A stretch of 22,708 nt of DNA from Balamuthia mandrillaris. Taxonomy: Eukaryota. The first letter of the stretch is position 1; each line of letters starts with the position of its first letter. The translations under genes were made by a program, and so were the position numbers. The notes beneath the pieces are model-generated. The model saw only the letters and a list, made by a program, of their open reading frames with translations. It had not been told where the DNA came from and ran no database searches. The DNA is taken from assembly GCA_031835245.2 (NCBI GenBank), contig JAVKOQ020000039.1, positions 248,001-270,708 on the forward strand. The letters run 5' to 3'. This document shows, one piece after another, positions 3 through 22,708 of this stretch.

Positions 3-974
3 GTTCTTGTCCCTCGCTTTGATTCGCGCCTCCCCGAAGAAGAGTTGGCGGATGGACTTGCTGTGGTTCCACGCCCTGGCTTGGATGCTGAGAGACTGGC
101 TCTTGTCCTTCCGACCACGGAACTTCATCTTGAATCCAGTCCTGCCCGCCGCCAAGCTGGTTTTCACGCCGTTGAAGAAATCATCGACGGCGTCACTGCG
201 AATGTATCGAGGAGTTTCCAACACCCACGCAAGGCTCTTGTCCTCTCCGTTGAAATTGCCGTTATTCAGGAATTTCTCCCTGACTTGTTCCTTCATCTCC
301 TTAAGAGGCATTCCTTTATGTTCACGATGGAACTCCACGGCCTTGTTGTAGGTCCATCGTACTGTGCCGAACCACTTGGCCAGCGTCTTCTTTTGTTCTG
401 AGCGCGGATAAAGGCGGATCTTCTCCACTCGCCCCACTACCGGTTTCTCCTCTCCGTTCTTGCCTTTTTTGGTGAGCTGTACGGCTGGGCGAGACGGAAC
501 GAGTCCCTCGATGAGGCCTAACAAGCCTTTCTGGTTTTTCTCCTCTCCTTCCTTCTCCTTCTCCTTCTCCTTCTCCTTCTCCTCTTCCTCTTCCTCCTTC
601 TTCTCCTTCTCCTTCTTCTTCTCCTCCTCCTCCAACACCTTTTCTCCGTTAGGAATGTGCTTGCAGGCGGTGAACCATCCTGAACCACAGGCAAAGGGTT
701 CTTCCAAGCACAAGGCTTCCGGGCGTATTGATCTTCTCCCGATTTCGCTGGAAAACTGGTTCCAAAAGGGCTGGGCAGGTGCAGCCTGCGGCCTACCACG
801 CTTCTGTGCCCTTGCCTGAGGTGCCGCTGGGGCGTTTTCCGCTCTTCTTTTCCGAGTAGCAGTGGAAGTAGCAGAAGTAGTGGCGCGACCCCCTTCCTTG
901 TGAACCCGACCGAAGTGGATGGCCAACCCGTGAGAGGTAGCAAACTTTTTTCCGCACTGTGGGCAACTTGCCAT
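3..974 (-). CDS. Fanzor2/TnpB-family RNA-guided endonuclease, N-terminal 324 codons (runs off the window's left edge)
   Basis: Manual translation from ATG 974 is stop-free to the edge, so the ORF track misses it. It reads MASCPQCGKKFATSHGLAIHFGRVH (C2H2), a Glu/Lys tract, then VEKIRLYPRSEQKKTLAKWFGTVRWTYNKAVE (HTH_OrfB_IS605-type TnpB start), AWVLETPRYIRSDAVDDF and FKMKFRGRKDKSQSLSIQ, typical TnpB/Fanzor2 motifs. The RuvC catalytic motifs lie outside the window. Confidence 0.88.
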   Translation of the reverse strand, partial: MASCPQCGKKFATSHGLAIHFGRVHKEGGRATTSATSTATRKRRAENAPAAPQARAQKRGRPQAAPAQPFWNQFSSEIGRRSIRPEALCLEEPFACGSGWFTACKHIPNGEKVLEEEEKKKEKEKKEEEEEEKEKEKEKEKEGEEKNQKGLLGLIEGLVPSRPAVQLTKKGKNGEEKPVVGRVEKIRLYPRSEQKKTLAKWFGTVRWTYNKAVEFHREHKGMPLKEMKEQVREKFLNNGNFNGEDKSLAWVLETPRYIRSDAVDDFFNGVKTSLAAGRTGFKMKFRGRKDKSQSLSIQARAWNHSKSIRQLFFGEARIKARDKN

Positions 975-1007
975 TCAGGCCAGCTTCCAGCAGCGTTGTG
1001 GAAGAGG

Positions 1008-1558
1008 CGCACAGAGGTCCATGATGCTGTTCTTTTTTAAACAAAAGAAATCATTAGTGAGTGGTTGGTAACAAATTTTGTTTCCATCATCAAAAAATGT
1101 AGTGAGCGAGCAGAGAAAAAAGAACGCTACCTTTTCAATCGGAGCAGTGCCCCTGCCTGCGGCTGAACCGCTTCGGTTTCCATCTCTGCCTCCTTCCGCT
1201 GGTTTCCTCCTTGTGTAGTAGAAGCGTAGCAATCAGAAATACGGTGGTGCGTGGAGCTGCGTGGATGTGTGTGTCTGTGTGTTTACTTTTGAAAAGAAAG
1301 AAAAGAAGAGAAGAGAAGAAAAGAAAACGAGTAGCAGAAAAATGTCAAGGCGACTGGCGAGTACCAAAAGTTTATTGGCGGCAGCAGCAGCATGAGCATC
1401 CATTCCATTCACCCCACCCCACAACCCACCCTACCACTTTGCCGACGTAGGAGAAGGAAGGGTTGTTTTGGCGGGAAACATGCTCATTGGCCCAAAAGAC
1501 TAATGTCGTGATTTCTTTTTTCGTTGTCCTTAGATCCTATGATCTTTGCGCCGCCTTA
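1008..1558 (-). mobile_element. Left end and 5' non-coding region of the Fanzor element (copy 1)
   Basis: About 550 bp highly similar to 21476-22022. Homology ends abruptly after plus-strand GCCGCCTTA in both copies (minus strand TAAGGCGGC). No transposase ORF is seen between this end and the Fanzor ATG. Confidence 0.8.
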
Positions 1559-10600: not shown

Positions 10601-11766
10601 GGCCTCTTCCCCTGCAGGTTTTTGTGCTGGGGTTTCTCCCATCCCCTCTTTTGCCTTTTCCCTTTTTCTCGTTCTCCCTCTTCAATCCGCTACCTATTGG
10701 GCTGTGGCAAGAGTTGATGAATGGCCTGTTGCTAAACGATGCTAAGACCATCTTTCGTGTTAACACAACAACAAAACAGAGGCATGGGGAAAAATCGTGT
10801 ACGCCGTGCAGCAGCAACAGGAGAATACAGAGCAAACTGTCATAACTAACAGCATTGCAGAGCACTATTTTGGACTGTCTGCACCTTGGGTAAAACAGCG
10901 ATTGGAATATCTTGAAAATGCCACTCGGTGTAGAAGGTTGTTTCATTCAGTTATTTGTTTTTTTTTAATGCTAGCTCACTCACATGTATTTTGTTGCCTT
11001 ATGCCCAGATATCAGTTTCAGTACCGAGATGTAACTCAAATAACAAGTGTGTTGCCAACCCCAAATGTAAATGGCTGTGCACGGTGTATTGCCTTTCTAA
11101 AGGGCAAACAGAAAAAGACCAAATATTTGTATGGGCAACCCATTTCTAGTTTTATGGCTCGGATGGAGAAAGTCCGCCAGGAGTATACAGCAGCATTGGT
11201 TCATTCTGACCATGCACTAAGTATTCCTACCACTATTGAGTACAAAAAATTGCAGTCAAAACAGCGACGGCTGCATGTATATCGGTCTAATATTCATGAC
11301 TGGGGTGTATTTACATTAGAACCCATCAAGCCTAATGAAATGATTGTGGAATATGTTGGTATGGTTCCTTCTTGCTTTAGTCTGTCCTATGCTTACTAAT
11401 CCTCTCTTTACTGCTTAATTCTGTGCTGGTTCTTTTGCAGGAGAAATTATTAGGCAAAAGGTTGCTGATGAGCGAGAAGCTCAGTATTTCAAGCGTGGAA
11501 TTGGAACTTATATGTTTCGTCTTGATGATGACCTCATTGTGGATGCTACCATGAAAGGCAACATTTCACGTATGATGAACCACTGCTGTGAACCAAATGC
11601 AATTGCCAGGTTGGTAAAAATAGATGGAGAACCACACATAATTCTCTATGCAGCACAATACATTGCCCCAATGCAAGAAATAACTTATGATTATAACTTC
11701 CCAATTGAAGATATCAAAATCCCTTGTTATTGTGGTGCTTCGTCTTGTAGAGGCTTTCTTAATTGA
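7645..11766 (+). CDS. Trithorax/MLL (KMT2)-like histone H3K4 methyltransferase: Myb-like, 2x PHD, ePHD, FYRN/FYRC, WIN-like, SET, post-SET (~1074 aa; exons 7645-7754, 7826-7977, 8087-8739, 8890-9678, 9770-9847, 9928-10433, 10514-10617, 10780-10936, 11009-11358, 11441-11766)
   Basis: Myb-like: GPWSEEEKKLF...WGLFSRSIPGRVGYQCSNYYR. PHDs: CCLCGS..CHDCSECYHSYC..WRCPDC and CEVC..CERCDDGFHTFCL..WYCDSC. ePHD: WCHANCARWSSEV..GATIGC..TYHFMCA. FYR: LYPVGFKSIRTFWS and HYFGLS. WIN-like: GCAR. SET: SNIHDWGVF..EYVGE..NHCCEPN..EITYDY. Post-SET: CYCGASSCRGFLN. The exon total is divisible by 3. Confidence 0.93.
8815..8841. repeat. (CT)n microsatellite in SET gene intron 3
   Basis: Perfect dinucleotide run seen directly. 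Confidence 0.9.
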
Positions 11767-11769
11767 GAT

Positions 11770-12350
11770 AATAAATAAATTTATTTAAGAGTTTTTGTAT
11801 TCATACAACAATAAAAATGCTAAAGTAAAATACACATTGCACTGTGGTTTTTGCCAGGACTTGTACATTCTCTCTCATCCTTGTTTTCTAAACAAATGAA
11901 AGGTGTTGAATGAGTTTTCAGACTAGCTTTGCACAATATCTATTCTCCTCTTTTCTCTTTTTCTCATTAAAAGGAATGAATAACATGAATAGACAGGGCC
12001 AAGACGTATTATTCAAGAGGGAACAAGGGAACAAATGGTGTCAAAAGGGAAAGGTGAGGTATAAATAAAACAAAACTAACTAAAGAAAAAAAGAAGGAAG
12101 CAACAGAATAAAAGGAAGAAGCCAAGTGATGTGGCAGTAGGTCCATGTCACAAATGTTGACAGGAAGAAAAGAAAAGAAAGAGCTATTCTCCTTCCTTAC
12201 TAGCCTTATCACATTTCCTTTGCTTATTCTACGTTATTTCTAAGGATTGATGAAATGCAAAAGAACATCCATACTTCCAATTTGCTCTTATTGTCCATAA
12301 TCTCTATACTTGTTTTCAACTTTCCTTGCATTGTTCCCTTAAGTTCTTTT
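11770..12350 (-). mobile_element. Diverged inverted 3' fragment of the same LINE family, interrupted by a ~234-bp insert (11950-12183)
   Basis: The reverse complement of 12210-12340 aligns with 12773-12890 (GGAACAATG..GAGATTATGG..AAGAGCAA..TTGGAAG..TGCATTT..ATCAATC). The reverse complement of 11895-11935 matches CAAAG.TAGTCTGAAA.CTCATTCAACACCTTTCA. The left boundary is uncertain. Confidence 0.65.
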
Positions 12351-12607
12351 ATCATATAGTATATAGATTGTCAACAGAAAAAAAAGAATGGAATGAAAAA
12401 AAATAAAGAGTTGATATATTGGCAGGTCCTAGGACCCTGGTGCATTCCACTGGCAGTTGAGTGAGGACAGGATGATAACACCATGTTGGAGCCTTGGTGA
12501 GTTGTTTAAAAACCAGGTTATAATACACACCTTAAGAATGATATACTATTTATGGAAAACAGGTTTGGCCATTGTATAAATAAATTATGCTTTCTAGAAA
12601 GGATCTG

Positions 12608-13110
12608 AAACAGCAGAACACTTCCTGTTAAGATGTCCAAATCTTTGGGAAGATCGCTTTAGAATCTGGAGTGTGGACAATGGAAATGAAGAACAAGTCA
12701 GAAAGCTGATTATAAAGGACTGTACAACAAAGCTCTTGTCGAGCGGAAAGAAATGCAACAGAGATCAAGAGATGGAACAATGTAAGCAAAGTTGTAAAAG
12801 AGTCTGGAGATTATGGGCAGCAAGAGCAAGTTGGAAGCATGGAAGTTCTTCTGCATTTTATCAATCTTTGGAAGTAATGTAAAAGCAAAGAAAAGAGAAG
12901 AAAGGAAAGGGAAAGAAAAAGGATAGCAAGATGATACAAAGTTAGTCTGAAATCTCATTCAACACCTTTCACTTGTGAACTTGAATAACAATTGGAAAGG
13001 CATCGAGGATGAGGGAGTAAGAGAAGTAAAAGTACACTATGTATGTACAATGCTTACTTTTTATGTATAGATTGGTGTTGCTCTCAGAGCAAATAAACTT
13101 CTTATTACTA
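12608..13110 (+). mobile_element. 5'-truncated non-LTR retrotransposon (LINE) 3' end with 14-bp TSD CTAGAAAGGATCTG
   Basis: TSD at 12594-12607 and 13111-13124. Near-identical to 18603-19105. Encodes the ETAEHFLLRCP zinc-knuckle remnant. AATAAA is followed by a (TAC)n tail. Confidence 0.88.
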
Positions 13111-13167
13111 CTAGAAAGGATCTGCTAGGGCCATGGACACTTGCTGGTTGTGTTGAAGTGCATCATG

Positions 13168-13507
13168 TGTTGAAAAACTCCAACATAATAGCTCTTCTTC
13201 TCTTCCTGTCGACCTCTTCTTCATGCCTGTTGACCTAAGGAAACCTCTCCATGTCCAACTTCTCCTTTTTTGAACTTCTCTTTTCTTGTTGTTTTCTCTC
13301 TTTGCTCTTTTATGCTGATTCTCTGCTCTTCTTTCTTGGATAATTGTTCAGCTTAAATACTGCCTCTCCTTGCTTTTCCTCTTGGGACAAACTTGCAACA
13401 CTACACAAGATACCTTACTTTCACTTACACTCATTACTTTAGTAAATTAAGTTCAGGTCTTATATTTACTTTGTCTCAGCTATCATTCCCGTTCTGATTT
13501 TACAACA
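13168..13507. mobile_element. Solo LTR (340 bp) with 4-bp TSD CATG
   Basis: Inverted termini TGTTGAAAAA...TTTTACAACA. CATG at 13164-13167 and 13508-13511. Removing it restores the minus-strand frame PLDIARKIIKGIHDALQHNQQVSMALADPF. Confidence 0.8.
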
Positions 13508-13709
13508 CATGGATGCCTTTAATGATTTTTCGAGCAATGTCAAGAGGAGGTGGAAGTTCAACATATTGATCTGTGTCAGAAATGTTGGAGTCATCTTCCT
13601 TGAACTCTTCTCATTCACCAGGAAGAGGATAACACACAAGAAGGCATAAGACCAATTCTAATGCATCACATTATGTTATGTTTCTTTCAAATAAGATCTC
13701 ATGCTCACC

Positions 13710-13991
13710 TTAGAGCAGCATGATGAAGAAGTGGTGATATAGCTTACAGGAGCCACAGTCAATGTAGACATGTGCTGCACAGCAGGCAACATGAGTGGTG
13801 GACTTGTCATCTAATGTGATCTCTATGTTGTCAATGTGAGAAATGACAGTATAGTGGTGTTCACAGGACGCTGGATAGAGGGACTTTTCTGCCACTGCTG
13901 GAGAGATAAAAGAGTGAGATGCTTCAAAGTCTATGAAGGCTGTGGCACACTGACAGTTAAGGAGGATGGAAGCCATGATAGGAAGTTCCAC
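13710..13991 (-). pseudogene. Retrotransposon aspartic protease remnant
   Basis: ATAFIDFEASHSFIS is a degenerate gag-asp protease active-site motif. It lies downstream of the gag-like ORF. Confidence 0.7.
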
Positions 13992-15087
13992 TATGTCCTC
14001 ACAGTCGTCTTTTACATCATCATTATCATCTATATCAAGACCTGGTGACTACAAGGCTGAAAGTGTCCATAGCTCTGAAAGAGAGAATTAAGATCAATGA
14101 TAGTAAGCTCTAATTGCCTTGGATCTCTCAGGCATGGTAGCTTCCATGAACTCCTACTTTGCAGTAGCATCTAGTTTGTTTGTAGATGGCTAGTTGGTGC
14201 CAAAGGGAGGCGAAACTGGTGAAAGAGACAGTGATGAAGGTGGTGATGGTGCTGAAGCTAGTTGCTGAGACTGTGATGTTTGCACCTGACTAGAGTTGAG
14301 TGCTGCAGGCTGGTGGGGTTTACACTAATGACCAGGATGCTGTTAGAAAGGGCAAATAACACGAACGGACGGGGCCAAAACGTATTATTGAATAATACGG
14401 GTCATCATGTTCAAGGTTGTATACAAATAGACGAGTCAGAATCTTGGAAGAATTCAATGGAGAGTCCAAAGAGGTAGGTCATGTCAAAGAAAAGCTCTGT
14501 AAAGGATGTATCAGCTGCATGATAAGGGGTGTGCACATGGGGTGGACTGTCAAAGAAGAGGCTCTCTTTGCCTTCTTTGACCTTCTCAGGCTCAGTGTGT
14601 TGTTGCCATTGGGCTTTGACCACCTGGTTGAGCTCAATGCACTCAAGGCAGTCCAGAACCTTGTTCACAATGTGGATGAGGGTGTCCATAATGGTTGTCT
14701 CATAGTACTTAAAGATGGACTTGTTGGTGTGCTCAAGAAGGACATTAACAGCTTCTATGAGGTAGGAGATATAGAAGGTTTGAGGCTCAAGGCAATCAAG
14801 CAGTTTGGAGAGGTATTGGAGGTTTTTCTGCTCCACTGGCTGGTAAGCATGATCCAGTTCCTGGATGTGATGCTCTGCAGAGTAGAGTTCCCATTTTGTA
14901 GCTGTTAATCGGGCAAAGGTTTGATCCTCATTGACCATCTGGTGTTTGTCCAGAGATTTGAGGAGCTTGTTTCATGTGAAAGTTCTGGAGGAGATAAATT
15001 GTTTCAATGTTAAGTACCATACTTGTCATCATCACTCATTGTTGTGAGGCTGAACCTTTTCTACTACTAAGAGTTTGCTTAAAAAAA

Positions 15088-15256
15088 TATTGATGGGATA
15101 AACTTTGTGGATCAAGAAAGGAACAGCACATAAGTGACTCTGGGTTTATTCACAGGAAAAAGTGGTGGACCAAAGTGTGTGATTTGAATATGTCATGAGG
15201 AAAAAGAGAAAATAAAAGGGGTGAATTTGGGGTATCCAGGGAGAGTGTTGTTGACA
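15088..15256 (-). repeat. 5' LTR of the Gypsy-like element (short, 169 bp)
   Basis: Similar to both ends of 17633-18099 (TAAGTGACTCTGGGTTTATTCACA, GGACCAAAGTGTGT, AATTTGGGGTATCCA, TGTTGTTGACA). Contains a minus-strand AATAAA and directly precedes the gag-like region. Confidence 0.72.
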
Positions 15257-15299
15257 GGAAGTCATAATTTTTATGACTTTTTACATCGTTGGTTTTCAA

Positions 15300-15420
15300 A
15301 CAATTTGGCCTCTTGAACTTGCTTCATAGCCTTCCCATTAAGTCTTTACTCCTTATCATGAGCTTTCTTTCCTTGAACTATTACCATTGATTTCTTTGCA
15401 TACCTAATGTTCCCATTCAG
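15300..15420 (-). pseudogene. Possible non-LTR reverse transcriptase fragment
   Basis: NIRYAKKSMVIVQGKKAHDKE*RLNGKAMKQVQEAK resembles the LINE RT segment preceding KYLG. It is short and decayed. Confidence 0.35.
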
Positions 15421-16179
15421 TTAGTTAATAGCACTTGACCATAGTACTAATCTGCAATAATGAAGCAAGGGGTGTCAAAAGGGAGGAAGGGAGGTGTAAG
15501 ACCACCAATGACCTAAAAGGAGCATAGGTACAGCTAAGAGAGACAGTTCTCAAGAATCATGTGAATGCTAAGACAATGAACAATCTCAAAGTTGTACTCT
15601 GAGATAAGGAGAGCCCAACTGTTGAAGATGTAGTTTTATTATCGGAATTATTATTTTGATAAAAATTGTTTTCATTAAAATTGAAAGTCAATTATGCAAA
15701 GGCCCCAATGGTAGTCATTGCTGTTGAAGCTTTCATTGTTTCATTCTCTGCCTGAGATAGACATTGCAAAAGGGCATAGATTGCTACACAGGAGAAAAAT
15801 AAGAGGTCAGAAAGAAATAGCAAACTCTCTTGCAAACCAATGAGAGCATACCCATTACTACTCTGAACCATAATGCATCGACTGCAACCATACTCATGAC
15901 CATAAGTAAGGTTAGAACTTTTACATGAGGGGTGGAACTTGCATCACTGTTATCCCTTTCCCTTTGCTTGGGAATGAGGTTACAGCACGTCTGCTTTCAA
16001 TTCCTTTCAGTTTTTGGTTTTAACAACCATTATTGTTCCCATCATTCTTGCCCAACATACTTTTCTTTTTGTTTCCACCTTTTTTTTATATAAAGTTACC
16101 AGTGACACAACACAACCATCACACACCTATTTTGTTTGTTTGTTTGGCTTTTGTTTTTGTTTTTTCCTTTTTTTTCATT

Positions 16180-17260
16180 ATGGAAGAGAAGAAAAAAAGA
16201 TTTGCAGAGATTTATGGGTGGATTTTTGAAAGAATGGTTCCATTGCAGCAGCTTTCAAGGTTGTACAATGGAGAAGAAGATGCTCTGACCTTCTATTGAG
16301 TCCAATGGAGATCAACTCATGGGCTTACAAAGTGAACAGGAGTGAAGGTGCTTAGTAATCCTCTCACCACCCTTGATGGAGTGAAAGTGTTGGTGCTGAC
16401 AGTCAAGAAAATGAAGAATGGAGTCCTTGAGGTTGCACTCCGTGAGAATCTTCACTGCTCTGGTAGCTTTGCCTGTACTCCTCCAAGCAGAAAGAAAAAC
16501 AAAAAAAAAAGGACTGTGGAGTGCAAAGCTGTTGGGTGGTGTTTAGAGACAAGCTGAACACTGCCTACATCTACATCCAAAAGGAAGCCCAAAGCCACAG
16601 ACCTGGGTTTTTCTGCAATGCCTATGACGCCTGCACTTTGACAATGGCTCTGCCAGATGGATGGGCAAGGAGCAAAAGAAGACAGGATGAAAGGAGGGGA
16701 GGAGCAATGATGACGCATGAGCTGCAACAACTATTGCTGGGGGGTGCTTGTGAGCTGGTCAAGGATGCTATTGATGTACCAACTGTGATGGAGATTGCCA
16801 CTATAATCCACAACAGAAGGAAAAAACTGCAAATCAGCAAGAAAGGCCAAACCAAAGCAGAAGCCCTCCAAGAGGCCTGGAATCAACATGAGCTGGCTTC
16901 CATTATCCTTTTTCCACCTTTGGAGAGCTGTGAAGCATACATCCTTGATCACACTGCAGCCCATCGGCCATGGATGATGTTTTTGATCACACCTTAGGCA
17001 GTCACTGTGCTTCAGCAATGGGGTAAGGAGGTAGTCAGCCTGACTTGGGATGGAGCTGGCCTGTTGCCTTCACTGTGGCTAGCAAGGAACGAGCTGTGGT
17101 TGTGTGCTTTTTTCTTTTGTCTGTTCATCACTTTTTTGAAACACAGACCACAATGATCTCTCTCCAACACCTACATGGCAACCCTTTGTAATGATCAACA
17201 AAGACAAGGTGGAGTGCAACAGGGCAACAAGCACTGGCTTTCAGGTGTTGACTTTCATAC
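16180..17260 (+). pseudogene. Mutator-like (MULE) DDE transposase relic
   Basis: Frame-disrupted translation from ATG 16180. It includes VLQQWGKEVVSL, then GWSWPVAFTVASKERAVVVCFFL (17048-), then WQPFVMINKDKVEC (17176-; ATC AAC may be ATC GAC after CpG decay). These MULE core motifs appear in the expected order. Confidence 0.65.
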
Positions 17261-17632
17261 AAACAAAGAAAAAGTGACTGTGCCCAGTGTGACAAAAAAA
17301 AGACTAGCAAAAAGAACCAAATAAAAAAAATAAACAGTTTTTCCTTGCCCATCCTCTCCTCTCTCCCCCCCCTCCCCCCCTCAAACTACGGAGGAAGAAA
17401 TGGGGGAGCAAACACTTGGTGACAGTTGCACAAAAATAATAGGTTGGTATAAATAATTACATATTAGGGACAACTACCTGAGGGATGGAACTTTAACGAA
17501 GTGTAAGGACCTTTTCTGTTGTGGGATGGGATGTTTACCCGATTTGCCTCTTTGACAAACCAACTCTACACAATGAAAACATACTATCACTACTTTTAAA
17601 CATGACAAAACCAAAAGTAAGATCAATGGTCT

Positions 17633-18099
17633 TGTTGATGGGGAATAACCCTGCGACTCAAGAAAGGGACGGCATGTAAGTGACTCTGGGTTTATTCACA
17701 TGAAAAAGGGGTGTGGACCAAAGTGTGTACTTTGAATATATATATCTCGAGAAAAAAGGGAAAATAAAAAGGAGTGAAAGAATTTGGGGTATCCAAAAGG
17801 AGGAAGGAAGTGGCAGATGGCCACACTCTCTTTTGCCTTTTTACTGAGTGTTGAATCAGCAGCGAACACCCCCTGCTTCCTCACCATTCCCCTCTCTTTG
17901 TTGCTCACAAAGAGAACACCAGGAAAGAAAAGAGAGGAGAGAGGTGGAAGCAGAATGCCAAGGAGAAAGGAGGAATAGGCCAAGGGGAACAAGAACTGTG
18001 GGTACTGTGTGTTGTACCTTTGGGAGACAACAACTGCAAAAGAAGAAGGAGAAGCAGGGCATAAATATTACATACCTGAGGGTTCCTTTGTTGTTGACA
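17633..18099 (-). repeat. LTR related to 15088-15256 (long 467-bp version, no internal domain attached)
   Basis: Minus-strand termini TGTCAACA...CATCAACA. Shares both terminal blocks with the short LTR and has ~300 bp extra internally. No TSD is recognisable. Confidence 0.68.
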
Positions 18100-18431
18100 A
18101 AATCATAACATGGAGGAATAGAACAAAGTGAACCAGTCCCTGTGCTTGCTCTCACTCTTCTGCAGTTTAACTCCCTCTTCTCCCACAACACTGAAGAAAC
18201 TAACACAGATAACAAAGAAGAAAAGATACTCGCATGATGCCTTATCCTCAATTTTATCTCTTTGATAAAGAACTGCAGGCCTTTAGCTAGCCTGTTCAAG
18301 GACAGCATAAGCCACTTGGAAGTCTTTCTATCTGTCCTCTAGGGTCTTTGGACAAGGGCAAGAGCAATGGCAATAGTGCATGGTTGTGTTTGTGCCAGTT
18401 TACAGTCTCCATAAATTCTATATGATGGAAA

Positions 18432-19111
18432 CAAATGGAAGATGTTTGGTTGGACAACAACGGAGCTTAGTGATTACCAACCCAAGGAAAGAACATTTGA
18501 TGAATGCTATTCGTTGTGGTGGACTGTCCATTGGAAAAAAGTGAGGAGCCATTCAGCAGTCTGAGGAGGATAGTAAGTGCCCTGCATGTGGTGCTGAGGA
18601 AGAAACAGCAGAATACTTCCTGTTAAGATGTCCAAATCTTTGGGAAGATCGCTTTAGAATCTGGAGTGTGGACAATGGAAATGAAGAACAAGTCAGAAAG
18701 CTGATTATAAAGGACTGTACAACAAAGCTCTTGTCGAGCGGAAAGAAATGCAACAGAGATCAAGAGATGGAACAATGTAAGCAAAGTTGTAAAAGAGTCT
18801 GGAGATTATGGGCAGCAAGAGCAAGTTGGAAGCATGGAAGTTCTTCTGCATTTTATCAATCTTTGGAAGTAATGTAAAAGCAAAGAAAAGAGAAGAAAGG
18901 AAAGGGAAAGAAAAAGGATAGCAAGATGATACAAAGTTAGTCTGAAATCTCATTCAACACCTTTCACTTGTGAACTTGAATAACAATTGGGAAGGCATTG
19001 AGGATGAGGAAGTAAGAGAAGTAAGAGTACACTATGTATGTACAATGCTTACTTTTTATGTATAGATTGGTGTTGCTCTCAGAGCAAATAAACTTCTTAT
19101 TACTACTACTG
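18432..19111 (+). mobile_element. 5'-truncated LINE 3' end with 14-bp TSD CTATATGATGGAAA
   Basis: TSD at 18418-18431 and 19112-19125. Encodes KCPACGAEEETAEYFLLRCP (non-LTR ORF2 C-terminal zinc knuckle) through to VWRLWAAR. AATAAA is followed by a TACTACTACT tail. Confidence 0.88.
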
Positions 19112-19989
19112 CTATATGATGGAAATTGGTGGTTTTTCTGCCCAGCTAAATTTATATGGACAGTTTTTGGTGGCTGATGGAAAAACTGCCAAAACCACTG
19201 TTTTGGGAAAGCTGCAAAACCGTTACACAAAAATTTGTCCAGAATTTTTGACAGCTTAATTTGACTACCAAAATCCACTGAGTGTACAGGAATTTCAAAG
19301 ATCTTTTTCCTGCTTTCTGTGAAACTTTCCCAAGCCTAGAACTTAAAAATAGAAAAACTAAGAAGTCACTCTCCAACTCCAAGCCTCTTTCCTTCCTTGA
19401 CTTGCTTCTCAACTATAAATACTCTTCTTTTAACAAGAATTACAAAAATGGAAAAAACATAAGGGACTCAAGAAGTAATACTTGATTTTTTTTCTTGGTT
19501 CTATGCTCAGGTTCCTAAAGGTGACTGTTTATTGAAACAAAAAAAAATGAAAACAAAAACAGAAAAAAGCGGCAGAAAGTGGCCACACATCTCATCATAA
19601 GGAGTGCTATAACACCATAGCTTCTGGGTGCCAAGTGTGGTGATATGTGTGCACAAGGTACTGGATTAGTGCAGTGGCCTTGTCACTCATTTTTATGCTT
19701 TGTTCTGCTATATTCCTGGTAGAAAAGCAAATATATATATAGAAACAATGAAGTTACTACAAACCAACAGAAAAGATGTGTTTGCAGGGATTGTGAAAAG
19801 AAACTGGTAGTACACAGAAGTGGTTTAATCTTTTATTTTGTGCTGTCTCCCTTTCCTTTTGTTCACTTTCTTCTGGTCTTATTTTTGATTAAAAAGGTAC
19901 TTCTCAGACAAAAGAAATCAAAAATGGTAAATCTCCATAAAGAATAAAGTCAGTCAGGTCATTTCCCTTACTCACCTAGTTGTCACATG

Positions 19990-20345
19990 TCTTTCCAAAA
20001 TTGGTTCCTTAAAAGTAAAGACCAGGTAGTAGGCAAATCCCTTTCTTTTTTCCCCCAGATCTGATAAGGAGAGGAAACCTCATCTTTTTTCATACAAACA
20101 AGAAGAACCTTAATCAATAGCAAAGATTGCCAGGAAGAAAATGTTTTAAACCTGGACATAATGCTATTAATGTGTAACTTGAAAAAAAAGAGAGAAACAG
20201 CAATGCTCTTGACGGTTGCTATTTCAGAAAAAGAAAAGGCATTCAAGGTTTGTGTTCCTTCATAAGTGTATATAGCCATAGCTTATTAATCAATCTTGTT
20301 GAACAGAACGAAATATCCCCACAATTCCAAGCAATTTGTTGCATA
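19990..20345 (-). pseudogene. Possible LINE APE-endonuclease N-terminal remnant
   Basis: MQQIAWNCG followed, after frameshifts, by an ECLF(F)SEIAT-like segment resembles the APE WN and xLxE motifs. Heavily decayed. Confidence 0.3.
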
Positions 20346-20595
20346 CTTTTACTTTACTTTATGTTAAACTTTTACTGCTGATGATCTGGCCTTTAAAGTA
20401 TACCCAGAATTTCTGCTACTCTTCTGCTTATCACCTTGCAAAAATAACCAAAGAAATAATTATTATTTTGATTTTGTTAGACAACAAACAGCATGATGGA
20501 AGCTCTCTTGTGCTTTGCTCCACCTAGAGGACAAGCAGAAGATCAAGGGCCATGATTCTTGTTCCCAGCACTACAAGCTAGACATTATCTACATA

Positions 20596-21343
20596 AATGA
20601 CAATGGCTGCCTTCACCGTCACTTTCCTCCCCTCAGGAATAACTTCCTTTGTCCTTCTCAAGAAGCACAGTGTTTCTGTTGAGAGACATTTCACAAAGTA
20701 TGTGGATTCCCAGGATCTGTTGCTGTTAAAAAACAACAAGCACTTGTACCAAAACAACAATGAGTAGGTGCTGAAACAGGTTGCACTCCAAGAGTGGCAA
20801 TGTTCTTTACATAAATGTAACAAAAGAGAAGGCCCACAGGGTTTTTTGGATTTTCTACAGCTGCACCTCAAATTATTGCATGACAACCTCTCCCAGGTCT
20901 GCCCTCATGTCATAGCCTCTTTCTCTACCCCCGTCTGGTGGCAACAAACGGAGCAAAAGCAGGTCTATGTAGATGTTCCCAAGTTTACTGAATGCGACTT
21001 CTACATTCTAGGAACAATGGTTTTCAGAGATGGTGGAGGTGAGGGCTAAAGAAATGATTCAGCGACTGATGTCATTGATCTTTGCCAATGCCATGAAGGT
21101 CATGTGAGAAGCAAACTCTTCAAGTACCTCTTGCACTACAACAAACTTATTTACCAAAAAGCGGTGGACTTCCGATTGGGTTCCTACTCCTCTGTCATCA
21201 ATTGCCATTTTGAGAAGGACCCCATTGGCTTCATGTTGCACTTGTGTGATGAGCTAACTATGTGAAAGTTTGAAGAGACCTACTTCAAGGTCACCATTCC
21301 ATCGAAGGAACAACACCATGCACACATATTTGTCCTGGACCAG
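20596..21343 (+). pseudogene. Intronless pseudogene of unrecognised family
   Basis: A single frame of ~250 codons with only three stops (TAG, TAA, TGA), each reachable by a C-to-T transition. It reads ...RSKLFKYLLHYNKLIYQKAVDFRLGSY...KFEETYFKVTIPSKEQHHAHIFVLDQ. Confidence 0.55.
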
Positions 21344-21475
21344 CTGAATGTAACAAGGGAAATCGCAGTTAAAAAAGGAGGAGGAGGAGGTGGTAAGTGC
21401 TTGTAACATGAAAAAGCAGATCAAAATGTTTCAGGCAGTGTTGGCAGCTCAATCAGCCTGGTAGCCACACTCAGA
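21344..21475 (-). ncRNA. Putative Fanzor omega-RNA scaffold region (decayed, possibly partial)
   Basis: Located at the ORF 3' end and presumed right end, where TnpB/Fanzor guide RNAs are encoded. An imperfect 9-bp inverted repeat pairs 21349-21357 with 21400-21408. The minus strand ends in TTCAG. There is no expression evidence. Confidence 0.35.
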
Positions 21476-22020
21476 TGCACAGAGGTTCGTGATGCTGTTC
21501 TTTTTTAAACAAAAGAATTCATTAGTGAGTGGTTGGTAACAAATTTTTTTTCCATCATCAAAAACTGTAGTGAGCAAGCAGAGAAAAAGGCATGCTACCT
21601 TTTCAATCAGAGCAGTGCCCCTGCCTGCAGCTGAACTGCTTCGGTTTCCACCTCTGCCTCCTTCTGCTGGTTTCCTCCTTGTGTAGTAGAAGTGTTGCAA
21701 TCAGAAATATGGTAGGGCGTGGAGCTTCGTGGATGTGTGTGTCTGTGTGTTTACTTTTGAAAAGAAAGAAAAGAAAAGAAGAGAAGAGAAGAGAAGAAAA
21801 GAAAACGAGTAGAAGAAAAGTGTCAAGGTGAATAATGAGTATTAAAAGTTTATTGGCAGCAGCAGCAAGAGCATCCATTCCATTCACCCTACCCAACCCA
21901 CCACTTTGCCCTCACAGACATGGGAGAAGGAGGGTTGTTTTGGCGGGAAACATGCTCATTGGCCCAAAAGACTAATGTCGTGATTTCTTTTTTTTGTTGT
22001 CCTTTGATCTTGGGCCGCCT
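21344..22020 (-). mobile_element. Internally deleted non-autonomous Fanzor element (left end + Fanzor C-terminal remnant + putative omega-RNA/right end)
   Basis: 22022-21476 is a copy of the 1558-1008 left end. It is fused to CASECGYQAD*AANTA*NILICF, which with CpG decay reversed reads CASECGYQADRAANAARNILIRF (TnpB/Fanzor zinc finger and RuvC-III). The right boundary is inferred. Confidence 0.78.
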
Positions 22021-22249
22021 TACAATTTGCCCTGTGCGAGTGCAACAGCTAATAGGTTGGTTATTTTTAAGGAAAGCAGACGAAATTCCCACCTAAAAAC
22101 GATCAACGTCGCCAAGTGCTTGGAAAAGTTGGTGGGGGGGTTGCTGCGGAGGGGAAAAACTAGTAACCAAGAAGAAAGAAAGAGCCAAGGCTGCTGCCCT
22201 CCTTGTTGCGAGTATCTTGCTTAATCCTCCCTTTCCATTTCCATCAACA

Positions 22250-22689
22250 ATGTCACTGGCAAATCAAAGTGGGCGTGGCAGTGTCATTCCTCCTCCTGAC
22301 GATATACCGGTACCACTCCTTCCCATTTGCCTCCTCTCTTCAGCTTTCGTCGATTTGACCCTTTGAACCAATTGATATGTTCACCTCTTAAGTTGGATGA
22401 TGATGAAGGGGGCAATCCATTTGCAGAAGGGGGTAAGTACTGATGGTATTGATTCGAACATTCTTTCTCAACGTCACTCGACAAACCTAAGGAGGACAAG
22501 GCACTCGCAGTGGTCCCGTTCCCAATTATGGAGACGGGGGCGGCTATGCAGATAACTATGGTCTAGACGATGACGACGACGATTTTAATCCTTACAGTGA
22601 ACCTACAAGCTCTGCTCCTAGCCTCAGTGTCCCCCAGACATCTACCGCTGCAGCAAGGCCACACAGTACACCTGAGCTGCAGTTTGAAG
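22250..22689 (+). CDS. 5' part of an unidentified spliced host gene (exons 22250-22309, 22393-22432, 22492-22689; continues beyond window)
   Basis: Phase-consistent GT-AG introns give MSLANQSGRGSVIPPPDDIPLDDDEGGNPFAEGGGQGTRSG...DDDDDFNPYSEP...ELQFE. It is acidic, low-complexity and contains an NPF motif. CpG content returns to normal here. Confidence 0.65.
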
Positions 22690-22708
22690 GTATACTTTAC
22701 GTTGTAGA

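Follow-up and report, generated by a model that had tools for sequence, protein, structure and literature searches.

The window analysed here, a stretch of 22,708 nucleotides of the Balamuthia mandrillaris genome, holds a long and a short copy of one Fanzor-related sequence, and the short copy raises the question of whether it is a mini-element able to move or to supply guide RNA, or a broken copy. The original prediction described it as a deletion derivative of ~0.68 kb that reaches 21344 and keeps the omega-RNA end. An internal-deletion derivative of a Fanzor2 element, in which a leader copy is fused to a C-terminal tail, was indeed found; the homology ends at 21376 and the element measures 647 bp (21376-22022, minus strand), in which 97 nt of ORF tail follow the left end and the leader. 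With a probability of about 0.76, we read 21376-22022 as a CpG-decayed 647-bp Fanzor2 remnant that lacks the stop codon and the downstream region, likely an inert single-copy fossil that neither moves nor gives guides. Feature coordinates are collected in Table 1.

Table 1. Coordinates of the features in the window
Feature	Position	Strand	Remark
Copy 1 of the Fanzor2 family	3..1558	-	leader and 5' part of the Fanzor2 ORF, runs off the window edge
Pseudogene of Balamuthia hypothetical protein P0012	20624..21340	+	right-hand neighbour of the break
Single-copy flank	21344..21375	.	open in frame with the neighbouring pseudogene (depth and frame)
Fanzor2 ORF tail, 97 nt	21376..21472	-	end of zinc finger, RuvC-III region (tblastn in three frames)
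Leader-to-tail join	21473..21476	-	loose ends of family sequence at 21477 (5' part) and 21472 (3' part)
Leader copy, CpG-decayed	21477..22022	-	repeats 1009-1558 of copy 1
63-nt block	21931..21993	-	100% identical to 1459-1521; CCAAT and E2F-like motifs
Left end motif TAAGGCGG (element sense)	22015..22022	-	outermost common base 22022 = 1558 of copy 1

Leader copy and left end

The predicted duplication of ~550 bp upstream of the Fanzor ORF was confirmed. BLASTN aligned 21477-22022 with 1009-1558 at 88% over 545 columns with gaps (E 0.0), and in a global alignment 493 of the 529 ungapped columns were identical. The left end that a ghost or guide-donor mini-element would carry is present, 22022 corresponding to 1558, and TAAGGCGG is found exactly in the window only at 1551-1558 and 22015-22022. 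In all four runs mapped on 650-1750, unlike flanks begin behind 1557/1558 (X2, 7 contigs; X4, 2 + 2; X17, 11 reads; X18, 4 reads). TAA stands directly outside GG at this left boundary (1556-1558, 22020-22022) in nearly all flanks seen and is a candidate target motif of the Fanzor2 family. The leader belongs to the element, because its depth in the reads is similar to that of the ORF and 6 of 10 family gene models include leader sequence; this similar depth and the match of 21376-21472 to the 3' end of the ORF go against the two refuting outcomes named in the original prediction.

The 63-nt block of the leader contains CCAAT and E2F-like motifs and is a possible promoter. Its depth is several-fold higher and its flanks are many and unlike, as would be expected of a promoter module or of sister or short elements with the same left end. 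Both CpGs of the block (1459-1521/21931-21993) are kept in the fresh and the decayed copy. Multi-kilobase contigs of X1 and X2 revealed a sister subfamily with a shorter leader, in which 181 nt at 21683-21865 are replaced by 38. Spliced RNA antisense to the Fanzor gene was seen at 1014-1101 (matching 21482-21569), with an 86-nt GT..AG intron on the plus strand supported by 2 reads of X17, 4 reads of X18 and a loose end in X16 (6 reads). Among the splices listed, none represented sense-strand splicing of the annotated leader "introns".

ORF tail, internal join and right-hand break

The minus-strand frame of the tail reads CASECGYQAD*AANTA*NILICFFM, and the original prediction recognized the Fanzor C-terminus in it. 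This assignment holds: over 21472-21377, 26 of 32 residues agree with the C-terminus of P0007 (CPQPECGYQADRDANAARNILIRFFTLQALTTSSSSVRGR; E 1e-14 against the window), and the other two frames match frameshifted family members, P0001/P0004 (12/15) in one case and P0006/P0011 in the other, so that all three frames match relatives. The tail carries two nonsense changes and is cut ~five codons before the stop of the family. Five CpG transitions had been proposed for it; four were seen directly when family sequences were compared with the window (21408, 21418, 21433 and 21451, among the differences listed), and the fifth, in the Ala/Thr codon, would follow from translations in the alternative frames. 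Non-CpG differences between family reads and the window tail occur at 21425 and 21447, again among the differences listed.

At the join, leader and tail overlap by ~2 nt in the comparison with copy 1, and ~1.65 kb of the element is missing, as estimated from the lengths of P0008 and P0010. The proposed TGTGC(G) microhomology with zinc-finger Cys-Ala codons was rejected: the family zinc finger reads CPQPEC (P0007, P0010), not CASEC, and the first two residues "CA" of the remnant frame come from leader plus join, not from the zinc finger. The leader also matches the Arg-Cys-Pro codons at 8/9 positions; this imperfect match is 5-6 nt away from the join, would need a further small deletion and is not preferred. 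Among the reads and contigs listed for the four runs (4/4), none spans the join, a weak negative given that this listing was filtered, and the join therefore rests on the window itself. Likewise, none of the contigs listed carries the remnant's own alleles, including those of the sample that is exact at the right-hand break (X2). All 7 RNA reads over 21451 have the family allele, and 7 run on into zinc-finger sequence, in frame across the finger (both among the reads listed). With no listed read or contig across the join, there is no sign, on this weak evidence, of the short form as a family.

On the right, family homology stops at 21376 (21375-21377 in both frames that reach the break), within a TCC repeat and before the stop codon. 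At 21376-21378, six RNA reads of X16 depart from the window with a median of 63 loose letters (agreement 1). A DNA contig from a different sample, X4, departs there too with 56 letters, and both run into one continuation, in which the final codons, the stop and the sequence behind it are encoded. Loose ends were seen to 30 letters only, and the true right end of the family lies outside these data. Two subtypes on different contigs, P0006 and P0011, agree at 25 of 26 codons past the break; judging from these gene models, at least ~80 conserved nt would lie beyond it. When up to 3 mismatches were tolerated, a 19-nt motif of the continuation still had 0 matches in the window, also after CpG decay was taken into account, and a right end displaced to another place in the window was rejected on these 0 matches. 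The region between stop codon and right end, where the omega-RNA scaffold is expected, is thus not kept in the remnant, which breaks at 21376, and the claim that the omega-RNA end is retained and guides are given in trans is not supported, given this missing continuation and the single-copy depth of 21344-21375. P0003 carries an inverted, rearranged end: at its C-terminus, the 3' region of the element is read from the other strand.

Depth at 21310-21370 is that of single-copy DNA (X1, 18; X2, 68.3; X4, 0; X16, 0) and rises to thousands in X1 and X2 from 21371 on. In X2 it is 3732 at 21425 vs 68 on the flank, a roughly 55-fold ratio that hints at tens of copies, depth not being equal to copy number. 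The right-hand break is reproduced exactly by contigs of X1 and X2, of which record 9 of X2 covers 20700-21405 with 0 differences; both are probably the source sample and hence not independent. As far as tested, 21344-21375 is not part of the element; depth and reading frame are the sole grounds for placing it in the flank. The best terminal-repeat match at 21344 was 8/14, and 669 of 1000 random windows did as well or better; the 12 codons at 21341-21376 showed no significant similarity to P0012 (3188 of 5000 shuffles were as good). Formally, a worn terminal stub of the family right end could still stand at 21344-21375, because that end lies unseen, the P0012 similarity is not significant and a short decayed piece may escape mapping.

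The pseudogene next to the break matches P0012 at 107 of 245 residues (E 7e-61, pairwise). Its frame is open up to the break; the match ends at 21340 and the last 47 residues of P0012 were not found in the window. The P0012 family is seen only in Balamuthia, with one representative among 1.84 billion, and the pseudogene gave no significant Pfam match. An HUH-like look of the flank had suggested a Helitron Rep remnant; this idea was dropped, since Pfam and PDB gave no support, word-index searches were empty and a hypothetical protein was the sole relative.

Parent family, repeat block and CpG decay

The family cluster comprises 10 proteins, each on a contig of its own; 9 are named Balamuthia mandrillaris, mostly as "Transposase", and the host is thus eukaryotic, as for a Fanzor2. 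The DPG motif (RuvC-I) is present in 7 of 10 members, the other 3 lacking that region, and an alternative glutamate lies six residues before the first CxxC and 137 residues after DPG in 6 of 10; the distance reported for Fanzor2 is 120-160 residues (PMC10711439). The whole Fanzor motif (C4 zinc finger followed by the RuvC-III Asp) is complete in none of the 10 gene models, which have frameshifts and truncations, while zinc-finger and RuvC-III pieces occur in P0010, P0007 and P0008, with CxxxxC as the second pair. Some of the frameshifts may be assembly errors, because 7 RNA reads pass through the zinc finger without leaving the frame. The best solved relative of the parent protein is 9b0l, "TnpB-like protein L79" (E 1e-17), and the protein is 27% identical, including an N-terminal extension, to a phage IS607 TnpB beside a resolvase (L001). 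Taking DPG, the glutamate at 137, 9b0l and the likeness to phage IS607 TnpB together, we assign the parent to the IS607-derived type of Fanzor2. Its leader has no TnpA: no ORF for a serine-recombinase TnpA was present in copy 1 between the left end at 1558 and the ATG at 974. In the phage locus (L001:2697-4338) the N-terminal extension of TnpB overlaps the resolvase gene, and it aligns with the PFWN motif region of the Balamuthia Fanzor. IS607-like elements have GG at their ends and lack terminal inverted repeats and target-site duplications. Of the element ends available here, the left reads TAA-GG with variable flanks, and no terminal repeat was found at them.

The ORF of copy 1 (3-974, minus strand) contains HTH_OrfB_IS605 (PF12323, E 1.9e-10, Pfam), a C2H2-like finger and an acidic/basic tract. 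Its best relative is P0001 (92% over the region searched), and P0009 is the window's own copy 1 (99.7% over 315 residues). The gene model of P0009 stops ~15 residues beyond the window edge, and copy 1 is therefore probably truncated too. The family is transcribed (95 and 53 RNA reads on 650-1750); the RNA runs X16-X18 are 150-nt RNA-seq of other samples, of which 3-5% each was read, with a depth of 0 for X16 on the single-copy flank. Our literature searches found no paper on Fanzor or TnpB in Balamuthia, whose proteins might be listed in survey supplements. No DNA of other copies was found in the metagenome contigs, and the viral contigs gave one distant phage IS607 locus, L001. The family is thus multi-copy (10 proteins, 10 contigs), in line with the original prediction, and mobility of the mini form is not supported, its join being spanned by no listed read or contig.

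The remnant sits at the edge of a CpG-poor repeat block with sharp bounds (11.5-21.4 kb; 11500-21375) and adjoins a spliced host gene starting near 22248. The observed/expected CpG ratio is 0.63 in the gene-rich part of the window vs 0.15 in the block, which suggests a methylated repeat island in Balamuthia. Neighbouring genes in the window encode S1, PHD and NYN domains (Pfam), and one spliced intron was seen. Within the block, a 507-bp direct repeat (12607-13113 and 18602-19108, 99% identical) flanks a decayed interior with a weak aspartyl-protease match at 13710-13991 (RVP_2, E 0.007); the pair and its interior are an LTR-like element, the six-frame Pfam scan of the interior being otherwise empty. 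More inverted and direct repeats of 80-92% identity lie at 11892-11931, 12214-12337 and 15090-15238/17635-17795.

CpG decay of the remnant itself is heavy. Of the 22 CpGs of the copy 1 leader, the remnant has lost 12 by transition and retains 8; one of the other two falls in a gap and one shows a transversion. At non-CpG sites of the leader 23 of 485 differ from copy 1, and the family majority sides with the remnant at 8 of the 23. The observed/expected ratio is 0.33 in the remnant leader and 0 in the tail (0 CpG left), vs 0.76 in the copy 1 leader. In the related Acanthamoeba, CG methylation is reported to mark repeats (PMC12344493). The loss in the remnant fits such repeat methylation, which would also operate in Balamuthia if CpG loss is taken as its trace, and decay of this degree points to silencing.

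Alternative readings and relation to known systems

If the remnant is an inert fossil, a full element would have inserted at the edge of the CpG-poor repeat block. One deletion (~1.65 kb, with ~2 nt of overlap, as in end-joining repair) would have fused the leader to the ORF tail, and another would have taken the right end together with neighbouring DNA, joining the TCC repeat to a host pseudogene that itself lacks its 3' end. Cytosine methylation and deamination would then have eroded the CpGs; either deletion may have come first.

The same structure would result if the internal deletion came first in an element that kept both ends, transposed here as a mini-element and lost its right end later. 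The exact left end would agree with this history, SpuFz1 is known to have ghosts of about 550 nt (PMC10432273), and short relatives may exist, as some further sequences agree with the left end over its terminal 40-110 nt alone, where depth is several-fold higher. Against it, the listed reads and contigs of all four runs leave at 21472 or 21477 rather than cross the join, and the listed RNA reads have the family allele at 21451 (7/7) or continue into the zinc finger (7); we consider it unlikely. A chimeric assembly, with leader and tail taken from two copies and mis-joined, would account for the lack of a listed read or contig across 21472-21477, and X1 does differ from the window in the left-hand flank (17 other letters and 7 gaps over 22026-22411). 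Both halves, however, show strong private CpG loss, unlike the family majority, and the right break is exact in contigs of X1 and X2, which are probably the source sample and not independent. We regard mis-assembly as the least probable of the readings considered here.

A functional role as guide donor depends on the 3' region. The final bases of the scaffold (-4 to 0) of the mimivirus Fanzor2 are reported to form a core pseudoknot next to the guide (PMC11832414), a pseudoknot is reported as needed for activity of the IS607 TnpB of ISXfa1 (PMC10711439), and the mimivirus RNA is described as reaching about 200 nt past the ORF (PMC10530073). By analogy with the omega-RNA position in other Fanzor2s, the remnant is very unlikely to supply guides or to be mobilized, because it is cut before the stop codon and lacks this part of the scaffold. 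A ghost locus that keeps its omega-RNA end, down to 21344, and provides guides in trans would still be conceivable if the tail overlapped the 5' part of the omega-RNA, as reported for GtFz1 and ISDra2 TnpB (PMC10432273); the predicted fold allows 21464-21474 to pair with 21344-21354, and the family terminus lies unseen. It is opposed by the missing conserved 3' sequence of at least ~80 nt, by single-copy DNA at 21344-21375, by a fold at chance (41 of 200 shuffles as good), by the random-level terminal-repeat match (8/14, 669/1000) and by the CpG decay that points to silencing. The tail folded no better than shuffles in three versions (z -0.94, -0.62 and +1.70), and an Rfam search over 20000-22708 with E up to 5 gave 4 matches, all far below gathering scores. 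A scan for bacterial-type promoters and terminators was empty; its prokaryotic models are not relevant to this host. We hold such a guide donor to be highly improbable. Only slightly less doubtful is a bolder version, in which an unreported, transcribed, transposase-less Balamuthia Fanzor2 family has real ghosts and the locus is a doubly deleted one, with 21344-21375 as the worn tip of its right end and tail plus tip once a minimal omega-RNA.

We concluded that the inert fossil is the best explanation. As a broken copy the remnant is of little weight in itself, and it records how a Fanzor2 died in an amoeba, through an internal deletion, the loss of its right end and the erosion of its CpGs where it borders a repeat block. 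The better lead is its parent, a multi-copy, transcribed Balamuthia Fanzor2 family with a sharp TAA-GG left boundary. This family might yield a compact RNA-guided nuclease and an example of a Fanzor2 that spreads with no transposase linked to it. The guide-donor reading, if true, would provide a Fanzor2 counterpart of the Spu-1 ghosts, ghosts as such being already known.

In Spizellomyces punctatus, SpuFz1 is reported to have ghost elements of about 550 nt, and the Spu-1 ghosts (n=134) keep both 30-nt inverted repeats and a 75-nt omega-RNA region and give working scaffolds (PMC10432273). The remnant is likewise short (about 550-650 nt) and ORF-less, with the left end kept and a multi-copy Fanzor parent, whereas it lacks the 3' region and the right end, appears single and is CpG-eroded. 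The Balamuthia genome is reported to hold many fragmented elements (bioRxiv 10.1101/2025.02.25.640156); the remnant resembles these truncated transposon fragments in being broken and in lying in a repeat-rich block, and the available part of that preprint names no Fanzor or transposase family. IS607-derived Fanzor2 has been described in Acanthamoeba (PMC3627910). Compared with the Fanzor2 of IS607-like elements as reported there and elsewhere (mimivirus ApmFz2/ISvMimi; Acanthamoeba castellanii ACa-1 and -2; PMC3627910, PMC10711439, PMC11832414), the parent is alike in DPG, the alternative glutamate, the RuvC-III Asp and the N-terminal extension. It differs from them in a 580-nt leader without a serine-recombinase gene, in the CxxxxC second pair and in the extra C2H2-like finger and acidic/basic tract, and the remnant itself encodes nothing.
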